A stretch of DNA of 25,528 nucleotides from Candidatus Thorarchaeota archaeon (GCA_016840855.1 JAEORO010000036.1:1-25528); one strand, 5' to 3'. Numbered from the stretch's first letter, positions 8,488 to 25,042 are shown. Notes: generated by a model from the sequence alone, not told the origin. A program made the numbers and translations.

Positions 8488-9177
8488 TCAGAGGGTCTGA
8501 TCAAATTCAGAGATTGGACCCTGGCCTACCACCACACCCTTTCTAAGTGTCACAAATTCATCACATAATGCTGCTCCAAGAGCTAGATTGTGTGTTGTTA
8601 CAATTGTTGTTCGCAAATTCCTAAACTCGTTTAGATAATTCCAAAAGTCTTCAGTTGTATCTTTATCAAGTCCACTAAAAGGCTCATCCAAAAGTAGCAA
8701 TTCTGGATTGTGTATCAAACTTCGGACTATATCGAGTCTCTTTTTGAGCCCTGTTGAGAGGTTCTTAACGGGTTCTTGAAGCCATGACTGAATACCAAAC
8801 CTTGGTGCTAAACCATCTAGCTGAGATTTGAAGAAATCAGATGACAGTCCGAATAATTTGGAGTAGAACCAAAGGTTCTCAAATCCAGTGAGTTCCTCAT
8901 AAAGAAGCGGCTTGTCACCAACCAAACCTATACGTTTCTTCACTTCCTCAGATTCTTCTTGAGGGTCAAAACCCATTACAGAAATCTTTCCTCCATGGGG
9001 CCGAAGCAGGGTCGATATTACGCGCATAAGTGTGGTCTTTCCTGCACCATTCGAGCCAAAAAGCCCTTGAATGCCATTCTTCGAAAAACTAAGCGATACT
9101 TCCCTTAGCGCTACTCTATAACCATACCGTCTTGTGAGTTCAAAAGTTTCAATGGCTTTTGACAATGGGAAGTTCAC
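8488..9177 (-). CDS. ccmA: Heme exporter ABC ATPase CcmA
   Basis: Walker A GSNGAGKTT, signature LSTG, Walker B LLLLDEP and H-loop TTHN. Adjacent to ccmB. Confidence 0.9.
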   Translation of the reverse strand: MNFPLSKAIETFELTRRYGYRVALREVSLSFSKNGIQGLFGSNGAGKTTLMRVISTLLRPHGGKISVMGFDPQEESEEVKKRIGLVGDKPLLYEELTGFENLWFYSKLFGLSSDFFKSQLDGLAPRFGIQSWLQEPVKNLSTGLKKRLDIVRSLIHNPELLLLDEPFSGLDKDTTEDFWNYLNEFRNLRTTIVTTHNLALGAALCDEFVTLRKGVVVGQGPISEFDQTL

Positions 9178-9278: not shown

Positions 9279-10496
9279 TCAACCTAGTCCCATCAGACTG
9301 ATGAATAAATCTTCGATATTGAGAACTTTGATCTTGACTCCTCTTTTCTTGACTGCATCTAAGAAATTGAGCTTACAGAATACACATGATGAAACGATTG
9401 TTGTAGCGCCAGTTTCAAGTGCCTGATTCAGTCTTCGTGCAGCAACATTAACTGCATTTTCCCCAAATCCTGCTTTGAATCCTCCTCCAGCTCCACAACA
9501 GACAGAGTTTTGTCTATTCCTTTCCATCTCAACAAACTCGAGACCAGGAATGCTCTTCAAAATCTCTCGTGGAGCTTCGAACACTCCGACATGACGACCA
9601 AGATGGCAAGGATCGTGATATGTTACAGTCTCAGGATAACTTCCTTTCCATTCAAGTTCACCCTTCTTCAACTTTAGGGCTAGAAACTGAGTAAGATGCT
9701 GTGTGGAGAATGGTAAAATTCCATGTCGTTCTCTGTAGAAGCGAGGCCAATCGAGTGTCGTTGTTCTATAGCAGCCTGAACATGAGAAAATGACATGTTC
9801 AATACCTCGGGTCTTCATCTGTTCTACATTGTGGAGTATGAACTTTTCCGCCTCAAGAGTACCAATGTAATCCTTCTCTCCATCTTCAGACTCTTCATAT
9901 ACTGGTCGAGTCACTTGTCCTGTCCTAATCAACGGACTACAACAACAGTATTCATCAGCACCAAGAATCTGTGGCTCTATTCCGAAGTAATTTAGCATGC
10001 GCAATGTTGCATCTGCGATTTCAGGTCTCTTATATGATGCTGTGCAGCCAACAAAATAGCCCCACTCTGAATCATCTGAGATTCGTGTGTCAGGTTTGAC
10101 CCACGCACCTCGTTCTTTTGGGTCTTCTCCAAATACATTATTGCGCTTCAGCGCCAAATCTCCCATTACGTGAAGTTTTCCATAGGGTCCTTTCCCTAAT
10201 TGTACAAGTTTCTTTCTTACATCCTCTATTATTCTCACATATGGAACCTTGATAGGACAACGTTCTACACATTGCTCGCAGGTACTGCAGGCATAAACTG
10301 CTCTGACAAAACTTTCATCCACAGGAAGGTTCTTTTCAACATATGAACGCAAGAGGCGAAGTCTCCCACCGGCAAAAAATGCCTCAGATTGAAACTCCTC
10401 GTAGCTAGTACATGTCCATCTACAGGTTGAGCAATTACTACAAAGGACTATCTGATCAGGATCGACATCAAGTTCTGAAGTGAAAAATCTCTTCAT
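9279..10496 (-). CDS. GlcF/HdrD-like Fe-S protein (2x[4Fe-4S] plus two CCG domains)
   Basis: CSNCSTCRWTC and CSTCEQCVERCP; GC..YCCC..CSGC and HDPC..CCG..CVFC. The start overlaps the upstream stop (TAATG). Confidence 0.92.
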   Translation of the reverse strand: MKRFFTSELDVDPDQIVLCSNCSTCRWTCTSYEEFQSEAFFAGGRLRLLRSYVEKNLPVDESFVRAVYACSTCEQCVERCPIKVPYVRIIEDVRKKLVQLGKGPYGKLHVMGDLALKRNNVFGEDPKERGAWVKPDTRISDDSEWGYFVGCTASYKRPEIADATLRMLNYFGIEPQILGADEYCCCSPLIRTGQVTRPVYEESEDGEKDYIGTLEAEKFILHNVEQMKTRGIEHVIFSCSGCYRTTTLDWPRFYRERHGILPFSTQHLTQFLALKLKKGELEWKGSYPETVTYHDPCHLGRHVGVFEAPREILKSIPGLEFVEMERNRQNSVCCGAGGGFKAGFGENAVNVAARRLNQALETGATTIVSSCVFCKLNFLDAVKKRGVKIKVLNIEDLFISLMGLG

Positions 10497-11974
10497 TAGA
10501 TATTCCCCTCCTGATATGTGATTGGAATTTGGAGTATGTTCTTGGCTCGTCGTAATATTGCTTGCAATCTTCGAAAATGACCGTTCATTGTGAACATTAG
10601 ATTCAGCCGCGTATATGACATGTTACAATGAGTCAACTTGTCTGGGTTCATTATCCCTTTTGGATCCCATTTCTCTCTAAGTTTTATGTACCGTCTATAA
10701 TCCTCTGGCTGATATCGTTTAATATATACTGTGTTCTGGAGACCTAGTGTGTACAAAGTTCCTCCTAGTCGATACATCATCTTTACTAACTTATGCAGCA
10801 TTGACTTTCCAGCCATGAAGTGCATCCAATGTCTATGGTCTGAAGGAGCAAAAGCACAAAGTCTTGCTTTTGATGATCCACCAAGAACTAGATAAAAGCA
10901 CGAGTTAATTTTGAAGTTGTGTGCGATTTTATACATCCTTTTCACAATGGGCTCAACATACTCCAATGGAACCCAAAAGTTCTGCATTGATAATGTTGGG
11001 ACTTCTAATTTTAGTTTCATTTCAACAATATACCTATCATCCCAGTTTTTCTGATAATAGTCCTGCTGCATTTCATGACCACCAGCGACCTCGAAGATTC
11101 CCCGTGCGGTCTTTATTGATTCATTTACCTCATCAGCAGATCCACTATATGTAACCATGATAAAGAACAGACCTTTTGTGTTAGGGGGAAGGCCTCCCTG
11201 TATTCGCCACTCATATTCAAGATCAGTGAGTCGTAGATAGATAGGTTGTGTTTTGGTTTTACTAAGTCGAGTGAGAACATCTATTGCCTTTCCTAGCTCA
11301 TCAAATGCAAACATCAGTCCCTCTGTTGATTCTGGAATTGGAATTACTTTCAACTTGATTGTGGTGACAACTCCTGCAATTCCAGAAGTCCCATAAAAGG
11401 GCAGCATGTCTTCACCTGTCACAGTTTCAATTGTGCCATTAGGTCTCACCACTTCCATTTCCAGTATATTCTCAATCATTGAACCATATTTTGGAGTACC
11501 GATACCAGCCTTACCACCAATTGCTAACCATCCCGCAAGTGTGGACGCAACACTACTCTGCGGTGCTACTGGAGTTGTAAGTCCATGTTTTCTCAACTCA
11601 TTATTCAGAATCTCCCAAACTGCTCCTGCTTCAACTATTGTCCACCCTTTTTCTTTGTTAACTTCTTTTATTTTATCCATTCGTTTAGTATCAATCACAA
11701 CGCCGCCTCTGGTGGGGCTTGCTGAACCATAATAGCATGTACCTCCACCTCTTGGGATGGTTGGAATATTATTGTTTGAAGCGAAATTCATGATGGCTGA
11801 AACTTGATCATTAGTTTCTGGCCAAGCCACAAAATCAGCTAGCCATTTCTTTTTCCATCTATAGTGATAATAGGGAATGCCTGTTGTATCTCCACTTGCA
11901 GAAAGACGTTCTGCCATAAGATTGCTGACCCACGAAACCTCTGATAAATCTCTGATTGACTCTGTCGCATTCAA
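10496..11974 (-). CDS. FAD-binding oxidoreductase of VAO/PCMH (GlcD-like) fold, subtype A
   Basis: PRGGGT, STLAGWLAIGG, GTSGIAGVVT and C-terminal WDPKGIMNP. Paralog of 22351-23820 (shared YHYRWK motif). Confidence 0.9.
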   Translation of the reverse strand: MNATESIRDLSEVSWVSNLMAERLSASGDTTGIPYYHYRWKKKWLADFVAWPETNDQVSAIMNFASNNNIPTIPRGGGTCYYGSASPTRGGVVIDTKRMDKIKEVNKEKGWTIVEAGAVWEILNNELRKHGLTTPVAPQSSVASTLAGWLAIGGKAGIGTPKYGSMIENILEMEVVRPNGTIETVTGEDMLPFYGTSGIAGVVTTIKLKVIPIPESTEGLMFAFDELGKAIDVLTRLSKTKTQPIYLRLTDLEYEWRIQGGLPPNTKGLFFIMVTYSGSADEVNESIKTARGIFEVAGGHEMQQDYYQKNWDDRYIVEMKLKLEVPTLSMQNFWVPLEYVEPIVKRMYKIAHNFKINSCFYLVLGGSSKARLCAFAPSDHRHWMHFMAGKSMLHKLVKMMYRLGGTLYTLGLQNTVYIKRYQPEDYRRYIKLREKWDPKGIMNPDKLTHCNMSYTRLNLMFTMNGHFRRLQAILRRAKNILQIPITYQEGNI

Positions 11975-11986
11975 CCTTAATCACCT

Positions 11987-12397
11987 CTAAGCAATGTACT
12001 GAATGTATCCCATAGCAAAGACTATGGTCCAACATATCGCAGCTACTAATCCTGGAATATGTGTCCTTATGCCTGAGATTCCAGTTAGGAATGCACCAAT
12101 TCCAGAAATGTAACCTAACGTTCCCAAGCCAATATGAATCAAATGAAATAAGTCCGCTCCACCAGCACCGAGAAGTGTGCCAGTAAGAGGTAAAATAGTC
12201 ACAATATTGATTGTTGTTAGTAATAGTGATAGACCTGCACATAGACCATGGGCAAATGTGTACTTTTCCTTTGAAACATAGTATAATGCTGTCCCAATAT
12301 AGAGAAGTATTAGGGCTGGAAGTCCCAAGATCACAGTCATGTGTAAATTGTTAAACTGTAAAACTTGGAATTGATTGGTTGATAGATAGGATGTCAT
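11987..12397 (-). CDS. Four-TM membrane protein with conserved His, putative cytochrome b-like (DUF420/b561-like)
   Basis: Four hydrophobic helices with His in NLHMT, FAHGL and FHLIH. It aligns by eye with the C-terminal domain of 23831-25042. AGGAGG RBS. Confidence 0.65.
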   Translation of the reverse strand: MTSYLSTNQFQVLQFNNLHMTVILGLPALILLYIGTALYYVSKEKYTFAHGLCAGLSLLLTTINIVTILPLTGTLLGAGGADLFHLIHIGLGTLGYISGIGAFLTGISGIRTHIPGLVAAICWTIVFAMGYIQYIA

Positions 12398-12605
12398 CTA
12401 TTTTCCTCCTTGAACAGAATAAGTTGCTTTTGATGAACAAAGTTGAAACAAAGAATAATTTTGGTATTCTGAAAATGCAATGAACAATCTCGTAGATTGC
12501 ATGGAATTCGTAAGAAACTCTACTATCTCCTGATTAGTCTGGAAAAATCGACTTGTAGGTAGATGGGTCAAGCATTAACCAACTCCAGCAAATATCGTAC
12601 CTCCT

Positions 12606-14327
12606 TTAATGGAAGATTTTTCTAAAGAACCTCAGGAATGGTGTTCCTATTGAAAGCACAACCGTAATTGGTACCAGATTCGCAAATTCAGACACCACAA
12701 ATCCTGCAAATAGTCCTACTATGAACCAGACCAAAAAACTAGCCATATCGTTCACGAATATCCAAGGGACATATGCTTGAATTATCGATGGTACCAAAAT
12801 ACCTGCTAACCAAACCACAATTGGTGCCACTAATCCAGCTATGAGCATAATTAGTATGTTCAGTCGAACACTAAGAACCAATGGTCCTGGGAAGACTTTG
12901 TGTGAATTGAGAAATCCATTCTTGTCTGTTTTCCGTTTGAGATTAGACATTTTTGTGTAGTTCTCTTTTCCATAGAAACTTCTAGAGTGAGCAGCATTCC
13001 ACATGCCTATTGAATAGGCTCTACCACCATGTTTCAAACCAAGATTGATTACATCCAATGAGCGATACCAACCCATGAGGAAAGAAATTCTTCGTCGCTC
13101 ATCATCAGGGAACCATGTTAGGACAGCTACTTCACCTTTGTCCGTAATAGCTCCTTCAAGTGCGAAATCTTCCGATTTGAAGTGTTTGTTCATATGATTG
13201 ATATATTCATCCAAGTTTTCTAGCGGCACATAGACCTCTGAAGGAGCAAGACTGGGCCCAAGTCGTTTGATTCGCATTGGGTAGAAACGTTCACTCCATT
13301 CATGTTCCGCAACCTCATCGGATTCAAGAGATCCACTGTATCTACTCACGATATGTTTGAGCTTCTCAATTTCTGTAGCAATCTCATCTTCAGTTCCTTC
13401 GAATGCACATGATATGATGAATTCTCCTGTTGTTGGTGGTGCTTGATTCACTTCTTTCAACATCTTGTAGAAATTATCAGTGATGAAGTGCAAATAGAAT
13501 GGTCTTGTGGCTTCAAGGATATCCTGAAGTGCTCCAACCATTAGACTTTGGCTTCGAAAAGATGATGTGGTGGGTTTTATGTCTCTCAATGGTATTATTT
13601 TCAAGACAACTTTAGTAATAATCCCAAGAGCGCCATTGCTATCTACAAATAGTTGCGTTGAGTCAGGATTGTAAGTTATTCTATCACTAATTTCTCCGTA
13701 GAAGGAATCTCCGCCAATGAAATCATTTCTCTCTTTGTCAACCACGAATTTTTCTTCAGAAGTTTCCGTTGTTCGAATGATTTCACCATCTGGTAGAACA
13801 ACTTCCAGATCTACAACTTGTTCGGCAATTCCTCCATATTTAGTGCTACCAATGCCACTACCACCAGCAGCCACCCAGCCACCAACGGTGCTTGATGGAG
13901 CACTTGATGGATAGGCTGCAACAGTCAATCCCTCATCTTCAAGTTCTTCTATCAACTTCCCCCAAATTATACCCGAACCTACTTCTACAGTCATATTTTC
14001 TCTGTCAATGTGATGAATCTGATTTAATCTGGTCATCTCAAGAACAAGTCCGCCTCTTGTGGGCAGAGCACCTCCGTAACCACTCGTGCCATGTCCTCTA
14101 GGAACTACGGGGATGTGTTCCTGCTTGCAATATGTTAGAAGATTGGATACAACCTCAGTAGTTGATGGTTGCGCCACAGCTTCCGCATTCGGATTCAAAA
14201 CATCATTGACAATTCCGGGTAAAGCAGCAATATCATGAGAATATAGTTTGGTCATATATTCTTCTGAAGAGAAATAGTCTTCACCTGCTATATCTGCCAA
14301 TTTTTGCATATGCTTCTTCGCAATCAT
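12606..14327 (-). CDS. FAD-binding oxidoreductase of VAO/PCMH fold with a C-terminal membrane anchor, subtype B
   Basis: PRGHGTSGYGG, YPSSAPSSTVGGW and RFYPMRIKRLGPSL, plus a hydrophobic C-terminal extension of about 90 aa. Paralog of 16835-18556. Confidence 0.9.
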   Translation of the reverse strand: MIAKKHMQKLADIAGEDYFSSEEYMTKLYSHDIAALPGIVNDVLNPNAEAVAQPSTTEVVSNLLTYCKQEHIPVVPRGHGTSGYGGALPTRGGLVLEMTRLNQIHHIDRENMTVEVGSGIIWGKLIEELEDEGLTVAAYPSSAPSSTVGGWVAAGGSGIGSTKYGGIAEQVVDLEVVLPDGEIIRTTETSEEKFVVDKERNDFIGGDSFYGEISDRITYNPDSTQLFVDSNGALGIITKVVLKIIPLRDIKPTTSSFRSQSLMVGALQDILEATRPFYLHFITDNFYKMLKEVNQAPPTTGEFIISCAFEGTEDEIATEIEKLKHIVSRYSGSLESDEVAEHEWSERFYPMRIKRLGPSLAPSEVYVPLENLDEYINHMNKHFKSEDFALEGAITDKGEVAVLTWFPDDERRRISFLMGWYRSLDVINLGLKHGGRAYSIGMWNAAHSRSFYGKENYTKMSNLKRKTDKNGFLNSHKVFPGPLVLSVRLNILIMLIAGLVAPIVVWLAGILVPSIIQAYVPWIFVNDMASFLVWFIVGLFAGFVVSEFANLVPITVVLSIGTPFLRFFRKIFH

Positions 14328-14339
14328 TTACTGCACCAC

Positions 14340-15518
14340 CTAGAGATCCAATGCTTCAGCAACTATTTGTGACAAATCTTTGAATTGTATTTTTGACTGG
14401 CGATTTTCTATACCATCATTCAATGACATTGTACAAGATGGACATTCACTCGAAAGTATCGTGGCTCCTGTCTTCTCTGCTTCTTCAATACGTCTTGCTG
14501 ATACCCTCACAGATGCAACAGGATATGTGCCCTTCAAAAGCCCGCCGCCTCCACAGCAACGTGCTTTGTTACGGTTATGTTTCATCTCCTTCAGCTTAAG
14601 CCCTGGTATAGCTTTCAAGACCTCACGTGCTGGATTGTAGATGTTCTGATGTCTACCTAATTCACAAGGATCGTGCCATACTACTTCATGAGGGTATTCT
14701 TTCCTGAATTTGATCTTCCCATCCCTGAGTAATCTCAGGACAAACTCAGAGAATGGCAGGAATTCAAGACCCTCTACAACTTCCTTTCCGAGAAGGTGTG
14801 GATATTCCTCTGCAAAAGCCCGGTGACATCCTGGGCAGTTGAAGACAACTGTTTTGACACCAAGAGTCTTGAGAGCCTTAATATTATGCATGGCTAATTC
14901 TTTGCCCTTATCAAAGCCGCCTGCAACAAAGTATGGATTTCCACAACAGAATTCTTCGTCTCCAAGAACAGTGAAATCAATTCCTGCAGCGTTCATGACT
15001 TTGATTGTGTTTTCACCCATATGTGCTAAGGTTCCCTTGAAAGAGATATTACATCCAGCAAAATAAGCAACCTCTGCTTGAATACCAATCCTATCTTCAA
15101 CTAAATCATCAACCATATCTGTCCAGAGGGTTCTGTCAGCCTGATCCATCTCCATGATGTTCTGAGTTTGCTGAAGCGAGTCGTCAATGTAATTCACTAT
15201 CTCTGGCCATTGTTCGAGCTTACCAATTTCCTGTCGAGTAAGTTGCCAAAACCTAAGAAGAGGAATATTCGTTTGGCAAATCTCTTGGCAAGCTCCACAC
15301 AATGTGCAATAGAAGATTCTACTTGCAAAGTCACTTGGTATTGGCTTGTTTTCCTTTATGAGTGACTTGAGCTGGTATAATTTTCCTCTAGGTGACTGAG
15401 AGTCCCAAAGTGTATCTAGATATGCTGGGCAGACAAATGTGCAGAATCCACATCTAGCGCACACTGTTGGCTCAATATCGAGCCCTTCAAGTTTGAGGGA
15501 TTCGAATAGATTTGTCAT
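14340..15518 (-). CDS. GlcF/HdrD-like Fe-S protein (2x[4Fe-4S] plus two CCG domains)
   Basis: CARCGFCTFVCP, SPRGK and CTLCGACQEIC; GC..CCG..CPGC and HDPC..CCGGGG..CPSC. Confidence 0.93.
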   Translation of the reverse strand: MTNLFESLKLEGLDIEPTVCARCGFCTFVCPAYLDTLWDSQSPRGKLYQLKSLIKENKPIPSDFASRIFYCTLCGACQEICQTNIPLLRFWQLTRQEIGKLEQWPEIVNYIDDSLQQTQNIMEMDQADRTLWTDMVDDLVEDRIGIQAEVAYFAGCNISFKGTLAHMGENTIKVMNAAGIDFTVLGDEEFCCGNPYFVAGGFDKGKELAMHNIKALKTLGVKTVVFNCPGCHRAFAEEYPHLLGKEVVEGLEFLPFSEFVLRLLRDGKIKFRKEYPHEVVWHDPCELGRHQNIYNPAREVLKAIPGLKLKEMKHNRNKARCCGGGGLLKGTYPVASVRVSARRIEEAEKTGATILSSECPSCTMSLNDGIENRQSKIQFKDLSQIVAEALDL

Positions 15519-15533
15519 TGCTGCTTCTCCTTA

Positions 15534-16037: not shown

Positions 16038-16055
16038 TTATCTCACCTATCCTTT

Positions 16056-16637
16056 CTATCTCCTCTTGATTGCCAAGTAACCAAGAACAACTAGAATGAG
16101 TCCTGTGGCGATAGGAACCCAAATTATCATCATGCTCCAAATCTCGTATAAATCGACTGTTGTTGGTGGTGGCGTTGTTGTTCCAGATTCGCCAGTTACA
16201 ACCACTGTCACATCAAATGATTGTGCAAGATCTCCACCTGCTGCTGTCCAAATTCGGATAGTAAATGTACCGTTCGTAAGTGGAGTGAAAGTGACGTCTA
16301 CTGATATCTCTCCATCAGCTGCATTAGTATCGTTCGTCGAATCATCTTGAACAAGAGGTTCAGAGATTGTGAAGTAATCATTATCTTCCCATCCACTTTT
16401 GATAGCGACATATTCTGCGCCATTCCCTGCATCAATCTGGAGAACAAAAGGCACTCCTGTCTCTGCATCTACTGATGAATTTGTAGTGAGTGTGAGTGTC
16501 GTAAATGTTTCATGACAACCAGCACTCCCACATTCACTTGAGAAATTTGGACTTGCGACAACTGAGCTTGCCGCAGCAACTAACAAAAGAAGAAAGCTCA
16601 TAATCACTAAGAGCTTAGTTGTATGGTTACGTTTCAT
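16056..16637 (-). CDS. Exported, C-terminally anchored beta-rich protein with a CX4CH motif (putative atypical monoheme cytochrome c)
   Basis: Signal peptide, then SPNFSSECGSAGCH, an acidic Thr-rich domain, a TTTPPPTT linker, and a C-terminal TM ending KRR. The motif cysteines are the only Cys in the protein. Confidence 0.68.
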   Translation of the reverse strand: MKRNHTTKLLVIMSFLLLLVAAASSVVASPNFSSECGSAGCHETFTTLTLTTNSSVDAETGVPFVLQIDAGNGAEYVAIKSGWEDNDYFTISEPLVQDDSTNDTNAADGEISVDVTFTPLTNGTFTIRIWTAAGGDLAQSFDVTVVVTGESGTTTPPPTTVDLYEIWSMMIIWVPIATGLILVVLGYLAIKRR

Positions 16638-16658
16638 AGCTTTGTCACCTAGATTTGG

Positions 16659-16671
16659 TTACATGTTGCAT
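16659..16671. promoter_or_regulatory. Candidate operator TTRCA-N3-TGYAA (one mismatch)
   Basis: TTACA-TGT-TGCAT about 21 nt upstream of the CX4CH gene start. A further half-site (TTGCA-AAT) sits inside the inverted repeat AACTTG-N6-CAAGTT at 16685-16702. Confidence 0.45.
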
Positions 16672-16834
16672 CTTTTGTTTCGATAACTTGCAAATTCAAG
16701 TTTCGTTTTGGAACATACGTCTCGTATAAGAGCATATTGGTTAACCATGTTATCTGCCTATATGCCCATTGTCAAGTAATTATATATTCTTGCATGCAAC
16801 GCCAAAGTTGTGGGCTATACTTTTACTTCAATCT

Positions 16835-18556
16835 TTACTTATGTAGAATTTTACTTAAGAGTCTCAGAACCGGGATGCCAATTAAGAGTGCAAGGTTTAA
16901 AGTCATCAAACTGATAACAATAATTCCAAAGATGCCGCCTCCAAGTGAAACAAAGAACCATATCGGGATTGGTATTGAATCAACCAAACTTGAGTTCAAT
17001 AAATGAGTTAGCCAATCTATGCCTAACAGCCTTGGTCCAATCCAACTCATTATTGATGCTACTACAAACCCAACAACAAATCCAAGGGCTTTTGATTCTC
17101 GTCCTGCAGTAACTCTTCCTCCAAAAACTTTTACTGGATTCATGAGGTTTTCTGGATCCAGTTTGTTCTTCATGACTTTTAGTGCTCTATAATTCTCGGA
17201 GCCATAGAATTTCTCAGCATGTCTACTATTCCAGAGCCCCACAGCATACGGAAGTCCGCCAAAACGCTCTGCTAGTGTAGCTATTCGGAAAGATCGTTGC
17301 CAGCCAATAGTGAAGGACATACTCCTCCGTTCGTCATCAAGAATCCAAACCATAAATGACGTATTTCCATCGTTACTCAGTGTACCTTCAATTGCAACTT
17401 TTGATTTCCGAAGTTCATCTTTTGTTTCATCAAGAATTTCGGGCAGCATTTTCAATGGAGCAAGCATTTCTGCAGGTACAAGACTTGGTCCAAGACGTTT
17501 GATTCTTAGTGGATAGAGCCGCTCATTCCAATAGAACCAAGCTCTTTCATCAGTCAGTCTTGTTCCTTTTTCCTCTCGTAGGATACTTTGAATCCTGTCA
17601 CTGTTTTCTTCATTTTGAAAAATCGTATTAAGAAGAGCTCCTGTGAGTATGTACTTACCATGCTCTAATTCATTAGCTTGGAGAGCTCTTAATTTAGATG
17701 TATAGTTGTCTGCTAGAAATCTCAAGTAGTACGGTTGAATTTCCGAGATTATTCTAGTTGACGCATTTACTAAATCTCCAATAGATTCGAAGGAACACGC
17801 AAAAGGGATAAGCTGTAAATTTGGTATTGTTTTTAGTGTTGCCTTTGTTATTATACCAAGGGTTCCATATGTACCAGTAATCAACTTGGTTTCTTGTTCT
17901 GGTGTTCCAAGTCCTGTTGCGAGTAGCTCATCTGCCAGCCATCGATTCCCCTTCTCCGCTCTCTCTTGAAGAACGTCCATGTTTGGATCTAAAAGGACTT
18001 TACCAAGCCTTACAATTTTCCCATTGGGAAGTACTGCTTCGATTCCAAGAACCTGTTTCAGAATATCACCATGACGCGTTGATCCAATACCCAGTCCTCC
18101 ACTCGCAATAAACCCACCAACAGTTGCCGCTATTGCACTTGATGGATAGACTGGTAGGGTGAAGCCAAGACGTTCAAGGAAAGACAATAAGTCTCTCCAA
18201 GTTATTCCAGTTTCCACCGTGACTGCTTGTTCATACTCGTTGAAGTATAAAATATTGGACATCCTTGATAAACTGACACAAATTCCGCCCTGTGTTGGAA
18301 TCGAGCCTCCCCACCCTGAAGTTCCATTCCCTCGAGGGACCATAGGTATCCGATTATCACGAGCGTACCAGACTAAATTTTGAAGCGATAAGACATCAAC
18401 AGGTTGAGTTACAACGTCGAATTTAGGACTCACAATTTGATATGCAATATCAGGCAGACTTGTGACATCTTTAGAGTATATCATACAAGTTTCATGAGTT
18501 GTAGATACGTTATCAGCTCCAACAATATCCCCGATACGCATCTCGTCAATCTTCAC
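16835..18556 (-). CDS. FAD-binding oxidoreductase of VAO/PCMH fold with a C-terminal membrane anchor, subtype B
   Basis: PRGNGTSGWGG, YPSSAIAATVGGF, RLYPLRIKRLGPSL and LDPENLMNP, followed by hydrophobic helices. The GTG start overlaps the upstream TGA. Confidence 0.9.
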   Translation of the reverse strand: MKIDEMRIGDIVGADNVSTTHETCMIYSKDVTSLPDIAYQIVSPKFDVVTQPVDVLSLQNLVWYARDNRIPMVPRGNGTSGWGGSIPTQGGICVSLSRMSNILYFNEYEQAVTVETGITWRDLLSFLERLGFTLPVYPSSAIAATVGGFIASGGLGIGSTRHGDILKQVLGIEAVLPNGKIVRLGKVLLDPNMDVLQERAEKGNRWLADELLATGLGTPEQETKLITGTYGTLGIITKATLKTIPNLQLIPFACSFESIGDLVNASTRIISEIQPYYLRFLADNYTSKLRALQANELEHGKYILTGALLNTIFQNEENSDRIQSILREEKGTRLTDERAWFYWNERLYPLRIKRLGPSLVPAEMLAPLKMLPEILDETKDELRKSKVAIEGTLSNDGNTSFMVWILDDERRSMSFTIGWQRSFRIATLAERFGGLPYAVGLWNSRHAEKFYGSENYRALKVMKNKLDPENLMNPVKVFGGRVTAGRESKALGFVVGFVVASIMSWIGPRLLGIDWLTHLLNSSLVDSIPIPIWFFVSLGGGIFGIIVISLMTLNLALLIGIPVLRLLSKILHK

Positions 18557-19746
18557 TGATCTCCTTCACCTCCTAAATCCTTAGGTAACAGAGAATCAGC
18601 TACAATCTCCGTGATATCTTGCACCTGCATTTCATATCCCGTAGTGAATTTTGCTAAGTCAAATGCAAGTATACAACGTGGGCATTCAGTGATTATTCGT
18701 GAGGCTGGAGTAACTGTTGCGTCTCTGAGACGCATCTCAGCTATCCTAGATGAGAGGAGTGGGTCAACAACATTTAACAAACCATGTGCTCCACAACACC
18801 TTGTACTCTGTCTAGAGGGGTTCATCTCAACATTATAGACTCCAGGGATATCCTCGATGACCTCTCTCGGTTCTTCAGTTGCCTTTAATACTCTCGCGGC
18901 TATGCAGGGGTCATGAAATGTTACAGTAACCATTGGCTGCTCTTCGAATTTGAGTCGTCCCTCTCGACTAAGACGGTTGATAAATTGAGACGCAGTCAAA
19001 AGTTCAATACTGTTCTCTTCTTTGAGATATTTACTATACTCTGACCAAGTCTGTATGCATGATGGACAGCTGAACACAACAGTTTCTACGCCAAGATCGC
19101 GTATAATACTTAGATTCTTTTCAGCCATTTCATTGATGCCCTCAAAATTACCCGCCCAGCCTAGAGGAGCACCACAACAAATTTCCTTGTCCGCTAGTAG
19201 TGTATAGTCAATGTTTGCATAATCCATTATCTTTACCATTGATTTCGCAACATTATGTAGCTGCGATTTGAGTGAAACATTGCAACCAAGAAAATAAGCT
19301 ACCTTAGCTGGTTTGAGGATATGATCCTTGACAGTTTCTTCTATTTCTTCCATCCAAAGGAGTCTATCTGCTGCTCCCATCCACATAATGTCACCCTTGG
19401 ATTTGAGGGAATCTAAGACGAATTTTGCAGGCTCGGGCAATAATCCTCGTTGTCTCACCTCCGCGCGTGTGATTTCCCAGAATCTATCAAGACTAATCCC
19501 AGTTGTACAGACCGAAGTGCAGTGTTCGCAAAGATTGCATAGAAAAATCTTATTCGCGAAATCTTCACCAAACTCGCCTTCGCCTTCAATGATTGATTTC
19601 ACAATGTGAAGCTTTCCTCTTGGACCGTAAGACTCCCATCTGAGGTCTCGAAATACTGGACAAACTAGAGTGCAGTTACCACAAGAGGCACAAACATACG
19701 GTTCATCTTCTTGTCTGTACCTTTCTAGAAAGTCCATTTTGGTCAT
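18553..19746 (-). CDS. GlcF/HdrD-like Fe-S protein (2x[4Fe-4S] plus two CCG domains)
   Basis: CASCGNCTLVCP, GPRGK and CNLCEHCTSVC; GC..CCG..CPSC and HDPC..CCG..CPRC. Start moved to ATG 19746 because GGTGA lies at 19758-19754. Confidence 0.92.
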   Translation of the reverse strand: MTKMDFLERYRQEDEPYVCASCGNCTLVCPVFRDLRWESYGPRGKLHIVKSIIEGEGEFGEDFANKIFLCNLCEHCTSVCTTGISLDRFWEITRAEVRQRGLLPEPAKFVLDSLKSKGDIMWMGAADRLLWMEEIEETVKDHILKPAKVAYFLGCNVSLKSQLHNVAKSMVKIMDYANIDYTLLADKEICCGAPLGWAGNFEGINEMAEKNLSIIRDLGVETVVFSCPSCIQTWSEYSKYLKEENSIELLTASQFINRLSREGRLKFEEQPMVTVTFHDPCIAARVLKATEEPREVIEDIPGVYNVEMNPSRQSTRCCGAHGLLNVVDPLLSSRIAEMRLRDATVTPASRIITECPRCILAFDLAKFTTGYEMQVQDITEIVADSLLPKDLGGEGDQ

Positions 19747-19783
19747 CGAGATTTCACCATGAAGTGATGACAATTAACGAAAT

Positions 19784-19852
19784 GTCTGATGTGAAGTTAA
19801 CAGTTATGCCAAGGGCAGTTTCACCCTTGACACAACTCATAGTTGATCAGAC
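19784..19852 (-). other. Intercistronic RNA stem-loop
   Basis: On the minus strand AGUUGUGUCAAGGG pairs with CCCUUGGCAUAACU (14 bp including two G-U pairs, 8-nt loop, 19802-19837). It is enclosed by a 7-bp outer stem GUCUGAU/AUCAGAC. Confidence 0.6.
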
Positions 19853-21196
19853 CTACTTCAAGTCTTCAATCATTTCACCAGCACATGCAATACCTGACTT
19901 CGAAGATGCTTCCATGGATGCATAGTACATGCCACAGTTTGCATATTCCCCTGCTACATAAAGCCCTTCGACTCCAGTACGGTTAGTTGTAAGACGCTGG
20001 TCCATTATTCCAGGTGGTTGTTTGAGGATTGATTTCCAAATCTTCCAGCTCTTTTTCCAGGTGACTTTATCTTTAACACCAGGAATAAGAATCTCAAGTT
20101 CGTCAAGAATTGCTTCTGTTGCCTCCTCATCACTCATCTTAAGGAGCTCCTTGTCGATACCTGTGACTGTTAGAAGAGACTCTCCAATGGGTGCCAGTAC
20201 TCCTGACACTCTCTTCGCTTCAGCAACAATATTGATCTTTCTTTCTGGTACAAATGCACCGACATTGAAATCTAAGACTCGTGATTTCAAACCAAAGTAT
20301 CCAACGGTGCTAGGTGTATACTCAAACTTGGATGTTTTTTCGGTGAATTCTTTTGGCAACTCACTCATTCTAACGAAGTTTGGCAGGAGATCGATTGGAG
20401 TAGACAGGACAACAGCATCCGTATCCATATGTTTGCTCTCTCCATCTTGTTCATAGTCAACCCCAACCACTTTTCCATCTTCAATGATTACCTGCTTTAC
20501 AGCACAGTTGACCTGTGGTTCAACTCCAAAGTTACGGGCTTGAAGCATGAGTGTATATGCGACACTGCCTAATCCACCTCTCTCAGGATACATAGCACTG
20601 AATCCATCTTCATATGCGAATCTAAGGTGTTCGGAATAGAGGTATTGTCCAGCAGACACCTCATCTGGATTCATGAATGTAACAGTCTTGATTAGTGGCT
20701 CATAGAACTCATTTTGGATGGATTCTGCGATTTTCTTATCCTCTGCATACTCTGTAAAGGTCATCTTATCTAGTTCTTTGAATTCTTCTTTGGATCTCTT
20801 GATGTTCTCTTGAACAAGCAATCCAAGCTTAGCTCTGTCAGCTGCAGGCAATAGACCAAACTTTGCCAACTCAATAGCTGATTTTCGGATAATATGCCTT
20901 TCACCATCTTTGAGCCAGACTGCACCTTCCCCGACAGTGGTCATTTTAACTCCACTCCTTTCTAGAATCGGAATTAGTGATTTGAATCCGCCAACGAAGA
21001 AGTGTAATCCTTGGTCAAAGACATAGCCTGATTCCGTGTATGACCTGGCACGACCACCAACAGTCTTTTCTTTCTCAAGAATTGTGCATCGGGCTTTGAG
21101 ACCCTTTAATTCAAGTGCACAGCTGAATCCAGCTATACCACCGCCAACAATGACAACACGTGTCCCTTTTTCTTTACTCATAAGTGATATCTCCAC
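19853..21196 (-). CDS. FAD-dependent oxidoreductase of the amine oxidase / phytoene desaturase / HpnE superfamily
   Basis: Rossmann motif VVIVGGGIAG, then E....VGGRARS, DQGLHFF and C-terminal GLYVAGEY...ASMEASSKSG. The start may be ATG 21181. Confidence 0.82.
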   Translation of the reverse strand: MEISLMSKEKGTRVVIVGGGIAGFSCALELKGLKARCTILEKEKTVGGRARSYTESGYVFDQGLHFFVGGFKSLIPILERSGVKMTTVGEGAVWLKDGERHIIRKSAIELAKFGLLPAADRAKLGLLVQENIKRSKEEFKELDKMTFTEYAEDKKIAESIQNEFYEPLIKTVTFMNPDEVSAGQYLYSEHLRFAYEDGFSAMYPERGGLGSVAYTLMLQARNFGVEPQVNCAVKQVIIEDGKVVGVDYEQDGESKHMDTDAVVLSTPIDLLPNFVRMSELPKEFTEKTSKFEYTPSTVGYFGLKSRVLDFNVGAFVPERKINIVAEAKRVSGVLAPIGESLLTVTGIDKELLKMSDEEATEAILDELEILIPGVKDKVTWKKSWKIWKSILKQPPGIMDQRLTTNRTGVEGLYVAGEYANCGMYYASMEASSKSGIACAGEMIEDLK

Positions 21197-21216
21197 TTTT
21201 CTCTTGTTAATTCTTC

Positions 21217-22341
21217 CTACTCCTCCACCTGAGACGGTCGAGCTTTATCAAGGATTAGCTCATCAAGCTGGATTACTTCCAGATTTGTTTCCCTAGCATT
21301 GTAACTCAGATTCTTATAACATGACACACAGGTCGTAATGATTCCGTCTACGCCTAGCTCCTCTGCTTCAGCAACGCGTCGTCGTCCAACAGACTCAGAA
21401 AGGTCTGGATCTAAAACCGTAAGAAAGCCACCACAACAGTTTGAGTTTTCACGATTGTTCTTCATCTCCACCAATTCAAGACCAGGAACTGCTTGAATTA
21501 TTTCACGTGGGGGCTCATAAATTCCAAGAGCTCTTCCCAAGTGACAGCTGTCGTGGAATGTGTATTTACCTTCTAGACCCTCAAAAGTTAGAACGCCATT
21601 TCGTACCATGTCAGCTAAAACTTCCACTGTGTGGAGTATCTTAATGTCGAACTCAGGGATAATATGCGGATAGTGTTCTGCTAACGTACCATAACATCCT
21701 CCACAACCAGTGACTATGTGATCCACACCTGCTTTCTTGAACATTTCATAGTTCTTTCGTACCACTTCTGCAAATCCTTCGTCGTCACCAGCCCAATAAT
21801 TGAACAAGCCACAACATACTTCCTTTGGAACATATCCTGCATTGACTTTCAATTTGTGGAGCATATCGACCACTGTTTCAGGTTGGTCCGGATACCAGAA
21901 TGAGCCCATGCATCCAGAGAAGATTGCTGTATTTGATTCAGGAGGGAGTTCCAAATCTTCAGCCCAAACAGTTCTATCTTCAGACTCGTATCCGATAAAT
22001 GGAGTCCCTTCCTTCTCAATCCAATCGAGAACTTTCTGAAGCGGCTCTGACATTTCTGCTCCTGTCTTTAGAAGCTGACCTTTTGCATCATGCCATATGT
22101 CTGTCACAGGAACTCCTGCAGGGCAGATTGCCTCACATCGTCTACAATCAGCACAATACAGCCGCTGTAGAAGCTCAACTGGTGGATTTCTCATCTTCGT
22201 AGCGTATGCTCGAAGAGCTCGAAGTTTTCCTCCAGGACTATCAAGCTCTGATTTTAGCTCAATATACATTGGACAAGTATCTCTACAGTAATTACAAGAA
22301 CCACAGTTGCGTAGTACTTCTGCTAGGTTATCTATATTCAT
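21217..22341 (-). CDS. GlcF/HdrD-like Fe-S protein (2x[4Fe-4S] plus two CCG domains)
   Basis: CGSCNYCRDTCP and CADCRRCEAICP; GC..CCG..CGGC and HDSC..CCGG..CVSC. Confidence 0.93.
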   Translation of the reverse strand: MNIDNLAEVLRNCGSCNYCRDTCPMYIELKSELDSPGGKLRALRAYATKMRNPPVELLQRLYCADCRRCEAICPAGVPVTDIWHDAKGQLLKTGAEMSEPLQKVLDWIEKEGTPFIGYESEDRTVWAEDLELPPESNTAIFSGCMGSFWYPDQPETVVDMLHKLKVNAGYVPKEVCCGLFNYWAGDDEGFAEVVRKNYEMFKKAGVDHIVTGCGGCYGTLAEHYPHIIPEFDIKILHTVEVLADMVRNGVLTFEGLEGKYTFHDSCHLGRALGIYEPPREIIQAVPGLELVEMKNNRENSNCCGGFLTVLDPDLSESVGRRRVAEAEELGVDGIITTCVSCYKNLSYNARETNLEVIQLDELILDKARPSQVEE

Positions 22342-22350
22342 TTTTACACC

Positions 22351-23820
22351 TCACTTACCCACATATCTTGATAGCCTCCGGAATGCGGCGGCTAATGCAA
22401 ATAGTAAATCTATCCTTCTGAAAGAAGTCAAACAAGTTGTTACTCTATCTGGATTCATGATTCCCTCAGGGTCCCACTTGGCTTTGGCTTCCTTCATTTC
22501 TACTAATCGATCTGGATATGCACGTGCCATATAGATTGAATTTTGAAGTCCAATCGTATATGGAACTCCTCCAGATTTGATAGCTTTTTTCATCATCTTA
22601 TGCAAGATTCCCTTGCTTGAAATGAACTTCAGGTATTGAGCAGCATCTATCATTGCCATTAGCTCAAGTCGCATGGCATCTGGTGTGCCCAGCATGCCAA
22701 ACCACAAAGCTGGAATTTTGTGAGATCTGCGGTATGACTCATATGCAGCGAGCATCTCATGCACTTTCTCTGTAGGCACCCACAGTTCTTGGAACATCAG
22801 AGTTTCAGTATGTTCCTTTGGATTGAATTCAGCATCGTATCTGAGTTCCCATTCTTTTTCAGAGAATTCCTCTCCGAGAAAGACTCCTGAATTGTCACCA
22901 GCAATGACATTGAGATCTTCAGATGGTATATCGGAGGGTGTGTCTATATAGGTCACAGTCAGAACATATTTCCCATCTTCAAGTGGATTGCTGTACTTTA
23001 GAAGTTCATCGTCTGCAATCTTTAGATAAATTGGTTTCTTCTCTAGCTCTGCTGTTGCTCTCATTGCATTGCAGAGTCCTTCCAATTCCCTGAATCCATA
23101 GCTGAATGTTTTGTATCCTTTGGGTTTCTCATGCACTCGAAGTGTAATCTCAAAAATGATTCCAAGTATGCCATACGAGTGCAAGAAAAGGTCAATCTCA
23201 TCATTCTCGATGGTATTTTTCGTTCCATCTCCTCCGATGACTGAGAGTGAGAGAGTGTGATCTCTGAGTGACCCATAATATGGAGTTCCTATACCTCCTC
23301 TACCCCCACATGCTATCCAGCCACCTATAACTGCTGACTTCGCACTTGACGGGTAGATTCCAAATGTCAACCCATGTTTCTCTAGTTCGTTCTCGAGTCT
23401 ATCGAAGGTGACTCCTGGCTCAACACGAACAAACATTGACTTTTTGTTGATCTCTAGGATTTTATTCATGGGTTTGATATCGAGTGATATTCCACCGCGA
23501 GTTGGACTAGATGAGCTCATGCAACTTGAAGCTCCACCACGAGGTACAACAGGTATTTTGTGCTGACGGGCAATCTTCAGTACCTCTTCTATCTCATTGA
23601 CATTCTCTACTCTGACTACATAATCCGCGAGGTATTTTGCTTTCCACCGATAGTGATATTGAGGAAGAACAGCAGGGTCACCACTATACACTACTCGTTC
23701 TAGTTCGGAATCTGAAACTCTCTCCTCACCAACAATCTCGACTAGCTTGTCAAGCACAGTTGCTTCGGTTTTCACGATTGGTTGTGGGTCAGGTACATTT
23801 CCTAAATCTGTTTCAGTCAT
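22351..23820 (-). CDS. FAD-binding oxidoreductase of VAO/PCMH (GlcD-like) fold, subtype A
   Basis: PRGGASS, YPSSAKSAVIGGW, SYGILGII and WDPEGIMNP. Shares YHYRWK with 10496-11974. Confidence 0.9.
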   Translation of the reverse strand: MTETDLGNVPDPQPIVKTEATVLDKLVEIVGEERVSDSELERVVYSGDPAVLPQYHYRWKAKYLADYVVRVENVNEIEEVLKIARQHKIPVVPRGGASSCMSSSSPTRGGISLDIKPMNKILEINKKSMFVRVEPGVTFDRLENELEKHGLTFGIYPSSAKSAVIGGWIACGGRGGIGTPYYGSLRDHTLSLSVIGGDGTKNTIENDEIDLFLHSYGILGIIFEITLRVHEKPKGYKTFSYGFRELEGLCNAMRATAELEKKPIYLKIADDELLKYSNPLEDGKYVLTVTYIDTPSDIPSEDLNVIAGDNSGVFLGEEFSEKEWELRYDAEFNPKEHTETLMFQELWVPTEKVHEMLAAYESYRRSHKIPALWFGMLGTPDAMRLELMAMIDAAQYLKFISSKGILHKMMKKAIKSGGVPYTIGLQNSIYMARAYPDRLVEMKEAKAKWDPEGIMNPDRVTTCLTSFRRIDLLFALAAAFRRLSRYVGK

Positions 23821-23830
23821 CTAAACCACC

Positions 23831-25042
23831 TCACGGAACAAAGACTTCTCCAAGATAGACTCCCATTATTCCAAGTATTGTCCACAAAACTACTGCAGGA
23901 AGACCAAGATTGCATGTTTTCCACCCACCAAGATGTGTCAAAAGCGCGAGGGAACCAAGAATCATGCTAATTATTCCAAGCCAAACATGCCATGCGTGCA
24001 TGAATAACAGCATGTTACTAATGTCTATCAGGAATGCAGGATTCATGACACTCCAGGTGCTGGCAGGCTCCATGAATAGGCTCAATACATTAATCGTCGT
24101 GAGAATGTACGCCAAACCAAGCATGATGCCATGGATTCTGGTGAACCTTTCTTCATCATAATACTCAAGAGCTGTTCCCAGATAAGCTAGAACAAGTGCT
24201 GGTGCTCCAAGTAACCAACCATAGTGAAATTGTGGTAGCTCTATAGGTTCGACGGGAATGTTTCCAACGATATATGATAATGTGGGGCTGATGCTCTCGG
24301 TCCCAGAGGCGTCCATTGCCACAATCCGCCAGAGAACTTCTTGATTATTCGCTAACCCTGGGATTGTTCCAGAATACACACCGACTTCAGTTGTTTCAGT
24401 CATACTGACATTTGTCCAAGTTGCACCATTATTGGTGCTATACTGAAGTCTGACATAGGTTATTGTTTCGGTGGAAGTGACAGAAACTGTGACTGTGAAC
24501 TCTTCATTTGCTCGTGGGACTTCTGGAGTAGTTGAAGGAGACCCAATTGATGGGCCAGGACCTGCTTGAACTACATCGACGGTTATTGATGAACTAATCG
24601 AATAGGGAGTATGCTGAGCAGCAAAAATTGTCAGTGTATAGGTTCCAGCAAATGCAGGAGCTGTGATGTTATAGAATGTATGAATTGCGTTATCGGCCAT
24701 GTCAAGATCTAGTGTGGGATCATTATCTGTAACTAGTCCTGGGTCATCTACATTCATTGGCACTTCTATTGTGAACTCATCATTATTGGCGACTTGACTG
24801 GGAATTCTTAGTACGAATACATCCTGTGAGAGACCAGCCGCAGTGACTTCAACCTGAAAGGTTTCTGATGGGGCCACCTCAATTGATGATATTGTACTTA
24901 TCGAAAGGCCTGTGGAATCGTTATGGCAGGTAGTTGAACAATTACTTTCGGCACTACTATTCGCGAGAACATTTCCAGCTGCAACCATGATGAGGATTAC
25001 TGAAGCAAAAACAACTAGTGCGACTTTGAACTTGTGCCTCAT
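23831..25042 (-). CDS. Exported CX3CH / beta-rich domains fused to a four-TM His-containing membrane domain (putative cytochrome c-cytochrome b fusion)
   Basis: Signal peptide, NSSAESNCSTTCH, two beta-rich domains (the second with LQYSTNNGATW), then four TMs with FHYG, RIHG and MHAWH. GGTGAT RBS. Confidence 0.7.
   Translation of the reverse strand: MRHKFKVALVVFASVILIMVAAGNVLANSSAESNCSTTCHNDSTGLSISTISSIEVAPSETFQVEVTAAGLSQDVFVLRIPSQVANNDEFTIEVPMNVDDPGLVTDNDPTLDLDMADNAIHTFYNITAPAFAGTYTLTIFAAQHTPYSISSSITVDVVQAGPGPSIGSPSTTPEVPRANEEFTVTVSVTSTETITYVRLQYSTNNGATWTNVSMTETTEVGVYSGTIPGLANNQEVLWRIVAMDASGTESISPTLSYIVGNIPVEPIELPQFHYGWLLGAPALVLAYLGTALEYYDEERFTRIHGIMLGLAYILTTINVLSLFMEPASTWSVMNPAFLIDISNMLLFMHAWHVWLGIISMILGSLALLTHLGGWKTCNLGLPAVVLWTILGIMGVYLGEVFVP

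Follow-up and report, generated by a model that had tools for sequence, protein, structure and literature searches.

Two exported proteins of a Thorarchaeota gene cluster as putative monoheme c-type cytochromes with a variable heme-motif spacer

The stretch of DNA considered here, referred to as the window, is an entire contig of 25,528 bases (GCA_016840855.1, JAEORO010000036.1:1-25528) from the assembly of a Candidatus Thorarchaeota archaeon (3.36 Mb, 92% complete). All its large open reading frames (ORFs) between positions 267 and 25042 lie on the minus strand, with the exception of an FMN-reductase-like gene (5879-6514, plus strand), and those from 6520 to 25042 form a one-strand cluster of approximately 19 kb that ends, in the window, with the cytochrome c maturation (Ccm) genes ccmA, ccmB, ccmC and ccmE. 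Two genes of the cluster encode exported proteins, P0001 and P0002, which carry a Cys-Xn-Cys-His motif shortly after the signal peptide, with n = 4 and n = 3, respectively, in place of the canonical CXXCH of c-type cytochromes. From the comparisons described below, P0001 and P0002 are very likely to be c-type cytochromes, and they probably belong to an Asgard, Thorarchaeota-centred family of exported, membrane-anchored monoheme c-type cytochromes with a role in electron transfer.

P0001 is predicted to consist of a signal peptide, the CX4CH site, an immunoglobulin (Ig)-like beta-sandwich (approx. residues 49-148), a Thr/Pro linker and a C-terminal transmembrane (TM) anchor. In P0002, the signal peptide and the CX3CH site are followed by a first Ig-like domain (residues 47-157), a second, Ig/FN3-like, domain (170-258) and four TM helices (275-401). 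As read from the translations, both N-termini are basic and then hydrophobic, as in signal-type segments, with the motif found some 7-10 residues downstream, and the segment is a helix (residues 3-26) in the AlphaFold2 (AF2) models of both proteins. In a BLASTP alignment of 173 columns, the two proteins are 31% identical (E 1e-12), and a one-residue gap is all that keeps the motifs out of register. Thus, the paralogy that an earlier, sequence-only reading of the window had proposed, and the alignment blocks it had quoted, were recovered, and translation confirmed the position of both motifs on the minus strand and their like distance from the N-terminus (they begin at residue 36 in P0001 and at residue 35 in P0002). 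The sequon it had pointed out behind the motif is also retained in the P0001 family (N53 in 94% and T55 in 91% of the sequences).

Homologues were collected in a P0001-type set of 92 sequences (the query and 91 further orthologues listed) and in a P0002-type set of 50 (the query and 49 homologues). C36, C41 and H42 of P0001 are invariant in the 87 aligned rows of its type, at a mean column identity of 49%, and so are C35, C39 and H40 of P0002 in 49 aligned rows, at a mean column identity of 68%, so that the match to the motif is not due to chance. Taken over 188 ectodomains of all subfamilies, conservation is 100% for the second Cys and for the His, and 96% for the first Cys. A lack of Cys and His conservation, which the sequence-only reading had named as what would speak against it, was not observed in the orthologues: the three residues are kept in every full-length one. 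In the distant homologues of a second Asgard family (f9), described below, the first Cys is lost or replaced.

It is the distance between the two Cys residues that varies. Within the P0002 type, CX2CH is found in 33 sequences, CX3CH in four, CX4CH in nine and CX5CH in four, while CX1CH and other forms are found in none; the P0001 type comprises 19 CX2CH, 52 CX4CH and 19 CX5CH forms, no CX1CH or CX3CH form and two sequences that are truncated at the N-terminus. The family is rare, an exhaustive search of 1.84 billion representative sequences having returned 60 representatives at 50% identity (E <= 0.001). With the removal of P0054, already counted in the P0001/P0002 sets, 59 of them were tabulated: one CX1CH, 32 CX2CH, two CX3CH, 15 CX4CH, one CX5CH and eight without a two-Cys motif, the latter being fragments, matches to a repeat region only, or full N-termini with a single Cys-His (P0189 and P0195). 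Canonical CXXCH is, therefore, the majority form both in the P0002 family and among the representatives, and in one relative (G002) both orthologues are canonical (CGNCH and CSDCH). A Cys-His that is fixed, at a variable distance from the upstream Cys, with CXXCH more frequent than any other form, is what is predicted for a heme c site. The earlier expectation that homologues would keep Cys...Cys-His, with canonical variants among them, is borne out for n = 2 to 5; the accompanying statement that a CXXCH search would miss these proteins holds for the two of the window, but not for the family, where CX2CH is common.

Almost all the homologues bear the source name Candidatus Thorarchaeota, a few being from Sifarchaeia, Promethearchaeota and Odinarchaeota, and every source-given name of the listed homologues of P0001 and P0002 is 'hypothetical protein'. 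A narrow scan of genome contigs with a single peptide pattern gave 13 loci, all of them in Thorarchaeota or Promethearchaeota, a result with little bearing on the range of the family.

On a tree of 49 P0002-type proteins, built leaving out the motif columns, at least 13 changes in spacer length are required, as compared with a mean of 15.1 (range 13-16) when the labels are shuffled, so that spacer length carries almost no phylogenetic signal. At least 11 changes are required among the 87 sequences of the P0001 tree. The sister of P0002 (n = 3) is P0003 (n = 5), which is 88% identical to it over residues 1-170, and the next relatives have n = 2, 3 and 4. Codon views of 12 + 12 orthologous genes revealed clean in-frame insertions or deletions (indels) of Gly/Ser/Thr-rich codons in the spacer, and CX2CH, CX3CH, CX4CH and CX5CH all occur among orthologues that are approximately 90% identical. 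No other cytochrome family is known to exhibit such a variation in spacing between near-identical orthologues. CX3CH and CX4CH are described heme c motifs, and CX5CH is absent from the list given in the source (PMC11492766); no paper naming CX5CH or CXXXXXCH was found in the literature search.

The codon view of P0001 also showed that the four CX2CH forms all have a Thr after the His, whereas the residue is Asp or Glu in seven of the eight CX4CH forms and Thr in the remaining one. This pattern suggests that the spacer form is tied to the residue following the His, as if there were two allele classes, perhaps exchanged, rather than plain recurrent indels. Two contigs of one public metagenome (run X10) match the window up to position 24928, inside the spacer codons, and then diverge, with a continuation that, by eye, looks like a longer-spacer allele of a co-occurring strain. 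No indel rows at either motif were present in the four public runs whose contigs were aligned to the window. In run X2, one contig join skips window positions 16050-16695. Among 21 public runs, none with RNA was listed as containing the window.

The distribution of the family was compared with that of the Ccm system by using a profile of the P0001 family and the Pfam entry PF01578, a Ccm heme-handling family, which in the window is matched by ccmC. Of the 41 relatives compared, 19 match PF01578, and it is the identical 19 that match the profile; one further genome (G034) gives only a marginal profile hit (E 6.6e-5), and neither is found in six same-genus genomes with a completeness of 85-97%. 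In a sample of 301 Asgard genomes, with the profile taken at E <= 1e-5, 44 are profile-positive, 80 PF01578-positive and 43 both. The sole genome with the profile only (G224) owes its place to a marginal hit (E 8.5e-6) that covers model positions 118-194 only, outside the heme region. For the 77 genomes of the family of the window organism, its own included, the figures are 38 with both, one with the profile only, two with PF01578 only (84% and 77% complete) and 36 with neither. Furthermore, paralogues found elsewhere in the genomes (200-1480 amino acids) were matched in none of the genomes without PF01578, with the exception of the marginal G034 and G224. The co-occurrence with ccm genes that the sequence-only reading had anticipated was thus observed, and homologues common in genomes without cytochrome c maturation, which it had named as evidence to the contrary, were not found among the 301 Asgard genomes.

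Across genomes of the same genus (G001, G003, G008, G012, G014, G016, G275 and G280), the set of Ccm and cytochrome genes is present in some species while in others it was not found, including genomes that are 97% and 93% complete; the set behaves as an accessory trait in the genus.

The genes that surround those of P0001 and P0002 are listed in table 1. Within 9279-23820 on the minus strand there are four paralogous pairs, each made of a GlcD-like flavoprotein and of an iron-sulfur (Fe-S) protein with CCG domains (PF02754, E 1e-28 to 1e-34). Two of the flavoproteins, of 573 amino acids each, carry hydrophobic C-terminal extensions, as seen by eye in the translations, a feature that is unusual for the GlcD-like enzyme family. 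The CCG proteins resemble TfrB, LdhH, GlpC, GlcF, DsrK, TmcB and HmcF, all below the NCBIfam cutoffs, with scores for TmcB, HmcF and DsrK of 43-83 bits versus cutoffs of 400-750.

Table 1. Features of the window, listed in minus-strand order from position 25042 down, with the plus-strand gene start at the contig end given last (aa, amino acids; pLDDT, predicted local distance difference test; FAD, flavin adenine dinucleotide).
Feature	Position	Strand	Details and basis
P0002	23831..25042	(-)	403 aa; translation; AF2 model mean pLDDT 83.8
CSTTCH, putative covalent heme site (CX3CH) of P0002	24923..24940	(-)	residues 35-40
His-rich 4-TM module of P0002, candidate b-heme module	23831..24241	(-)	residues 268-403; AF2, alignment
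GlcD-like FAD-linked oxidoreductase 1/4	22351..23820	(-)	PF01565 + PF02913; below NCBIfam cutoff
HdrD/GlpC-like Fe-S protein, two CCG domains, 1/4	21217..22341	(-)	PF02754 E 1e-34 + 4Fe-4S dicluster
Amine-oxidase/phytoene-desaturase-type flavoprotein	19853..21196	(-)	PF01593 E 3e-36; HpnE-like below cutoff
CCG Fe-S protein 2/4	18553..19773	(-)	Pfam, NCBIfam
GlcD-like FAD oxidoreductase 2/4, hydrophobic C-terminal extension (by eye)	16835..18556	(-)	Pfam
P0001	16056..16637	(-)	193 aa; translation; AF2 model mean pLDDT 81.1
CGSAGCH, putative covalent heme site (CX4CH) of P0001	16512..16532	(-)	residues 36-42
DUF2231-like membrane protein, directly downstream of P0001	15534..16037	(-)	PF09990 22.2 bits, under 26.4 cutoff
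CCG Fe-S protein 3/4	14340..15518	(-)	Pfam
GlcD-like FAD oxidoreductase 3/4, hydrophobic C-terminal extension (by eye)	12606..14327	(-)	Pfam
Stand-alone paralogue of P0002 4-TM module	11987..12397	(-)	136 aa; BLASTP 36% identity, E 1e-19
GlcD-like FAD oxidoreductase 4/4	10496..11974	(-)	Pfam
CCG Fe-S protein 4/4	9279..10496	(-)	Pfam
ccmA-type ABC ATPase	8488..9177	(-)	PF00005; place beside ccmB, ccmC kept in relative G002
ccmB	7798..8478	(-)	PF03379, 73.2 bits vs cutoff 24.9
ccmC	7060..7734	(-)	PF01578, 97.1 bits; sole PF01578 match in assembly
ccmE, archaeal type	6520..6912	(-)	PF03100, 46.7 bits; C-terminal T-S-C-P-S-K-Y-E = Cys-x-x-x-Tyr motif in place of His-x-x-x-Tyr
First 41 codons of multiheme cytochrome c gene, cut by contig end	25404..25528	(+)	matches N-terminus of G002 463-aa protein

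The four ccm genes of the window all score above the Pfam cutoffs; a read-through fusion of ccmB and ccmC was considered and rejected, there being two in-frame stops between the genes. According to a study of Methanosarcina acetivorans, the CXXXY motif of archaeal CcmE is needed for heme binding and the five genes ccmABCEF suffice for maturation in archaea (PMC9084895). In relatives of the same genus, the contig that carries ccmC also has a second, ccmF-type, PF01578 match at a distance of 19-22 kb from that gene. The whole gene order of relative G002 is identical to that of the window cluster and, beyond the P0002 orthologue, continues on the other strand with a multiheme cytochrome of 463 amino acids (seven CXXCH and one CX4CH motifs), a protein of 723 amino acids and a ccmF of 685 amino acids. 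From the match of the last 125 bases of the window to this multiheme cytochrome, together with the synteny, it can be concluded that the cluster is probably bracketed by ccm genes, with the contig broken before ccmF. The view that P0001 and P0002 are the only plausible Ccm substrates in the window was, therefore, too narrow, as the start of the multiheme cytochrome gene is also present. A scan of the window for bacterial-type promoters and terminators gave results at or below the expectation from shuffled sequence.

In the His-rich 4-TM module of P0002, H273, H304, H349, H352 and H370 are invariant in 49 rows (98-100% in the 50-row alignment). H273 is placed at the outer end of TM1, H304 on the inner side of TM2, H349 and H352 on the outer side of TM3 and H370 at the inner end of TM3. 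H273, H304 and H352 are all kept in 11 of 12 sequences across the subfamilies, including the stand-alone paralogue encoded in the window and four of the five f9 homologues aligned; the fifth lacks H273, and H370 is found only in the P0002 clade. The topology of the module would be compatible with one bis-His heme at least, close to the outer face, and with a second one in the P0002 clade. A fold search with the module (VIA-align wide) returned generic helical bundles only, with cytochrome b561 (Z 9.8, root-mean-square deviation 3.6, 122 residues) within the generic range. An identity as DUF420 was set aside, its Atlas score of 0.83 being below the trusted level, and Pfam searches of the TM modules at E <= 10 gave nothing usable.

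The protein encoded directly downstream of P0001 is probably a divergent PF09990 member, since several of its orthologues carry PF09990 in precomputed annotation, and in all of 46 sequences its residues H4, H9, H11 and H48 are retained. Homology between this DUF2231-like protein and the TM module of P0002 is unsupported (BLASTP E 5.8). Predictions of its complex with P0001 scored 0.80, 0.60 and 0.58 (median 0.60), the best of three controls scoring 0.00, with a partner pLDDT of at least 77 and with runs that agree in at least 52% of the contacts; according to the calibration of the method, most passes of this kind are wrong where the pairing was not already likely, and the DUF2231-like protein may possibly be the membrane partner of P0001.

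As for the ectodomains, P0001 has no Pfam match and neither protein has an NCBIfam match; the only Pfam hits of P0002 are weak, sub-threshold ones to CBM_56 and Reelin, both in the second domain. An Ig-like sandwich stands behind the motif in the AF2 models of both proteins, and the matches obtained with Foldseek and VIA-align are generic Ig-like domains (the surface layer (S-layer) protein SbsC, PapD-like and complement MG domains, Z <= 9.1). Besides the motif, the residues that are invariant family-wide in the 188 ectodomains are F64, N86, F89, D98, D103 and P119. In particular, D98 and D103 of the Asp-rich loop and the N86/F89 block are 99-100% conserved in all subfamilies, and this family-wide conservation argues that the loop is functional; it may bind Ca2+, as the sequence-only reading had proposed.

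Two groups of relatives widen the picture. The f9 homologues (288-371 amino acids) consist of a signal peptide, an Ig-like domain and a 4-TM module as in P0002, and are encoded in ccm loci. In three of the five loci that were read (L005, L006 and L007) they are found beside ccmF and a GlcD-like gene, and in L005, the sole one of these three loci read far enough, a CCG-type gene follows too. The CcmE of this group ends in ...Q-C-S and lacks the Tyr found in the archaeal CXXXY motif. Other exported proteins encoded in L005-L009 (genomes G151, G090, G251, G233 and G239) also show H-x(2-3)-C-H. Taken with their CcmE, the sites of these loci may point to an unusual chemistry of heme attachment. The second group is represented in the genome of the window organism itself by a third paralogue (contig C207:47-2377, minus strand) of 776 amino acids, with a canonical CGECH domain at the N-terminus, about six Ig-like repeat units (by eye) and a C-terminal TM anchor; the versions found in relatives are 1415-1483 amino acids long.

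Several of the findings weigh against the identification of P0001 and P0002 as electron-transferring cytochromes. Among the rows shown of the Foldseek (PDB) and VIA-align (wide) searches there was no cytochrome fold. The motif segment is of low confidence in both AF2 models (pLDDT block means of 47-61), as expected for a model built without its cofactor. The orthologue alignment of the P0001 ectodomain contains no second conserved His or Met, and in P0002, H144 is present in 46 of the 49 rows but is confined to that clade, the other subfamilies lacking it. The predicted heme may be five-coordinate, or its remaining ligand may come from some other group or from a partner. Where the first Cys would stand, the f9 homologues have His (HX2CH, HX4CH) or nothing (..GCH, ..SCH), which, from the alignments, weakens the notion that both Cys residues are essential, yet the Cys-His and the link with Ccm are retained. 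In some paralogues (776-1481 amino acids, the one of 1481 being encoded in G002) the heme domain lies at the tip of a repeat stalk, and a long stalk with a C-terminal anchor does not fit easily with a role as a simple wire to the membrane; such stalk-mounted domains would rather suggest display, contact or a shuttling arm. With respect to the gene context, ccmF is missing from the 92%-complete assembly, in which ccmC gives the sole PF01578 match, and every NCBIfam equivalog cutoff is above the scores of the cluster's FAD and CCG proteins. Finally, the co-occurrence with Ccm is not an independent statistical test: the genomes are related and the genes physically linked in one cluster, and both of these account for part of it.

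These observations bear differently on the alternatives. That the motif occurs by chance in two fast-evolving surface proteins devoid of a cofactor has only the low complexity of the Ser/Thr/Gly-rich spacer in its favour, and is hardly credible in view of the invariance of its three residues in 87 and 49 orthologues whose mean column identity is so much lower. A more substantial proposal is that Cys-Xn-Cys-His is a site for a metal (Cu, Zn or Fe), or a disulfide flanked by a His, associated with ccm only through residence in the same accessory cluster. The unusually free spacer length, the generic Ig-like fold, the dispensability of the first Cys in the f9 homologues and the confounding of the co-occurrence by linkage would all be in keeping with such a site. 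However, the signature of heme c is an invariant Cys-His that occurs most often as CXXCH; paralogues encoded elsewhere in the genomes still go with PF01578, apart from the two marginal cases; the family adjoins ccmF also in the second Asgard family, where the layout of the locus is different; and, in the known Ig-like cupredoxins, the Cys/His metal sites are found in C-terminal loops. On balance, a metal or disulfide site has a slim chance of being correct. The heme c could also be present and covalently bound without being part of an electron relay, as a five-coordinate, surface-displayed group used for ligand sensing, for small-molecule catalysis or detoxification, or for contact with a partner or mineral, the dehydrogenases being uncoupled neighbours. 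The lack of a distal His or Met conserved across the family, the position of some domains at the tip of C-terminally anchored stalks of 776-1481 amino acids and the presence of one heme per domain are all compatible with this idea, against which stand the fusion of the domain to a His-rich 4-TM module in P0002 and in the f9 homologues, the recurrence of the flavoprotein neighbourhood in two Asgard families (in three of the five f9 loci, with the CCG gene in the one read far enough) and the multiheme cytochrome encoded next door. A heme without a relay function is, thus, judged unlikely, though not far-fetched.

The assignment of the two proteins to a family of c-type cytochromes draws directly on how the motif is conserved and how it varies in length, on the neighbouring genes and on the co-occurrence of the family with Ccm; the idea of a hidden cytochrome family, with which the sequence-only reading had ended, finds its support in the spacer counts, the linkage to ccm and this same co-occurrence. 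What we infer from them is that heme is covalently bound, that the TM module contains b-hemes, which way the electrons flow and what the substrate is. In the proposed scheme, one heme c would be attached at Cys-Xn-Cys-His through thioether bonds, and the His would be the proximal ligand of its iron. Attachment would take place outside the cell by the action of a streamlined archaeal CcmABCEF system, the ccmF gene being placed just past the contig end on the evidence of the syntenic relative. Inside the cell, the GlcD-like flavoprotein and the HdrD-like CCG protein would oxidize or reduce a cytoplasmic substrate of the 2-hydroxy-acid type. Electrons would then be carried across the membrane by the His-rich 4-TM module, which is fused to the heme domain in P0002 and may be replaced by the separate DUF2231-like protein in the case of P0001, and on the outer side the heme c domain would hand them on, either to the multiheme cytochrome encoded next to it or to an acceptor or donor outside the cell. 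That P0001 and P0002 act in this way, as the outer redox centre of membrane complexes, has about an even chance of being correct. A more extended version is tentative and rather doubtful, namely that of a self-contained conduit of the Thorarchaeota group in which flavoproteins and CCG proteins inside are connected, by one polypeptide joining a heme b module and an Ig-like heme c domain, to the multiheme cytochrome and to the stalk-mounted domains, so that electrons could be exchanged directly with minerals or with syntrophic partners, and in which the heme loop evolves fast (CX1-5CH, with HXnCH or a single Cys in f9).

No closer relatives of eukaryotes are known than the Asgard archaea, and models of the lifestyle of these archaea rest on syntrophy via hydrogen, formate or electrons. 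If the identification is correct, part of the Thorarchaeota would gain an ability for respiration or electron exchange that is undercounted by motif-based surveys. On the more extended version given above, archaeal CcmF would accept substrates far looser than the textbook CXXCH, and the length of the spacer may tune the properties of the heme between strains. Orthologues that are approximately 90% identical and span CX2CH to CX5CH represent a natural series for the tolerance of the archaeal heme lyase and for the effect of the spacer on the heme. A survey of transporters reported no heme-handling proteins in Thorarchaeota (PMC7997004). No description of the family, or of c-type cytochromes of Thorarchaeota, was found in a literature search that left most subscription journals outside its reach.

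Extended spacers between the Cys residues are found in known cytochromes with CX3CH or CX4CH sites, such as tetraheme cytochrome c3 and many multiheme cytochromes, and the multiheme neighbour in G002 has one CX4CH motif as well. In such cytochromes, the spacing is not known to vary within a family. The proteins described here differ in having one predicted heme per protein, an Ig-like fold, a spacer that switches among two, three, four and five residues and no sequence family match. Cytochrome f is a membrane-anchored and mostly beta-sheet c-type cytochrome with the heme near the mature N-terminus, a C-terminal TM anchor and a distal ligand other than His or Met. Neither by sequence nor by fold was it matched in the rows obtained, and organism, domain size and conserved residues differ. 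A single motif right behind the signal peptide is also found in Cyc2 of iron oxidizers, a fused monoheme cytochrome-porin of Gram-negative bacteria. The motif is followed by a beta-rich, non-cytochrome domain in both cases, but the latter is an outer-membrane beta-barrel in Cyc2, and here it is predicted to be made of Ig-like sandwiches anchored in the archaeal cytoplasmic membrane.

With regard to the complex as a whole, DsrK, TmcB, HmcF and GlpC are cytoplasmic subunits of membrane redox complexes, and the Tmc, Hmc and DsrMKJOP complexes of sulfate reducers and HdrDE of Methanosarcina share with the arrangement proposed here the logic of three layers, namely an outer cytochrome c, a His-ligated membrane module and a cytoplasmic CCG protein. 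In the window, the outer cytochrome would instead be monoheme and Ig-like, it is fused to the membrane module in P0002, and GlcD-like flavoproteins are added. By analogy, the complex encoded here may work like Tmc, Hmc or DsrMKJOP without being a member of these groups.

As in the archaeal CcmABCEF system described in PMC9084895, the window contains ccmA, ccmB, ccmC and a ccmE of the Cys-x-x-x-Tyr type, with ccmF found in relatives; unlike there, the ccm genes probably bracket their presumed substrates, and the spacers of the latter vary. The large S-layer multiheme cytochromes of ANME (archaea that oxidize methane anaerobically) are, according to the report on them, encoded beside dedicated CcmF paralogues and have extra residues between the Cys of their motifs (bioRxiv 10.1101/2021.09.25.461819). 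They also are archaeal surface cytochromes fused to non-cytochrome extracellular domains and encoded beside ccmF, but they contain many hemes and belong to methane-oxidizing Halobacterota, whereas one predicted heme and an Ig-like domain are found here in Asgard archaea. Thus, what is known is the attachment of heme c at CXnCH sites matured by an archaeal Ccm system, and what is new is an uncurated family that joins an Ig-like fold, an N-terminal putative heme peptide, in some members a TM module, and a hypervariable spacer.

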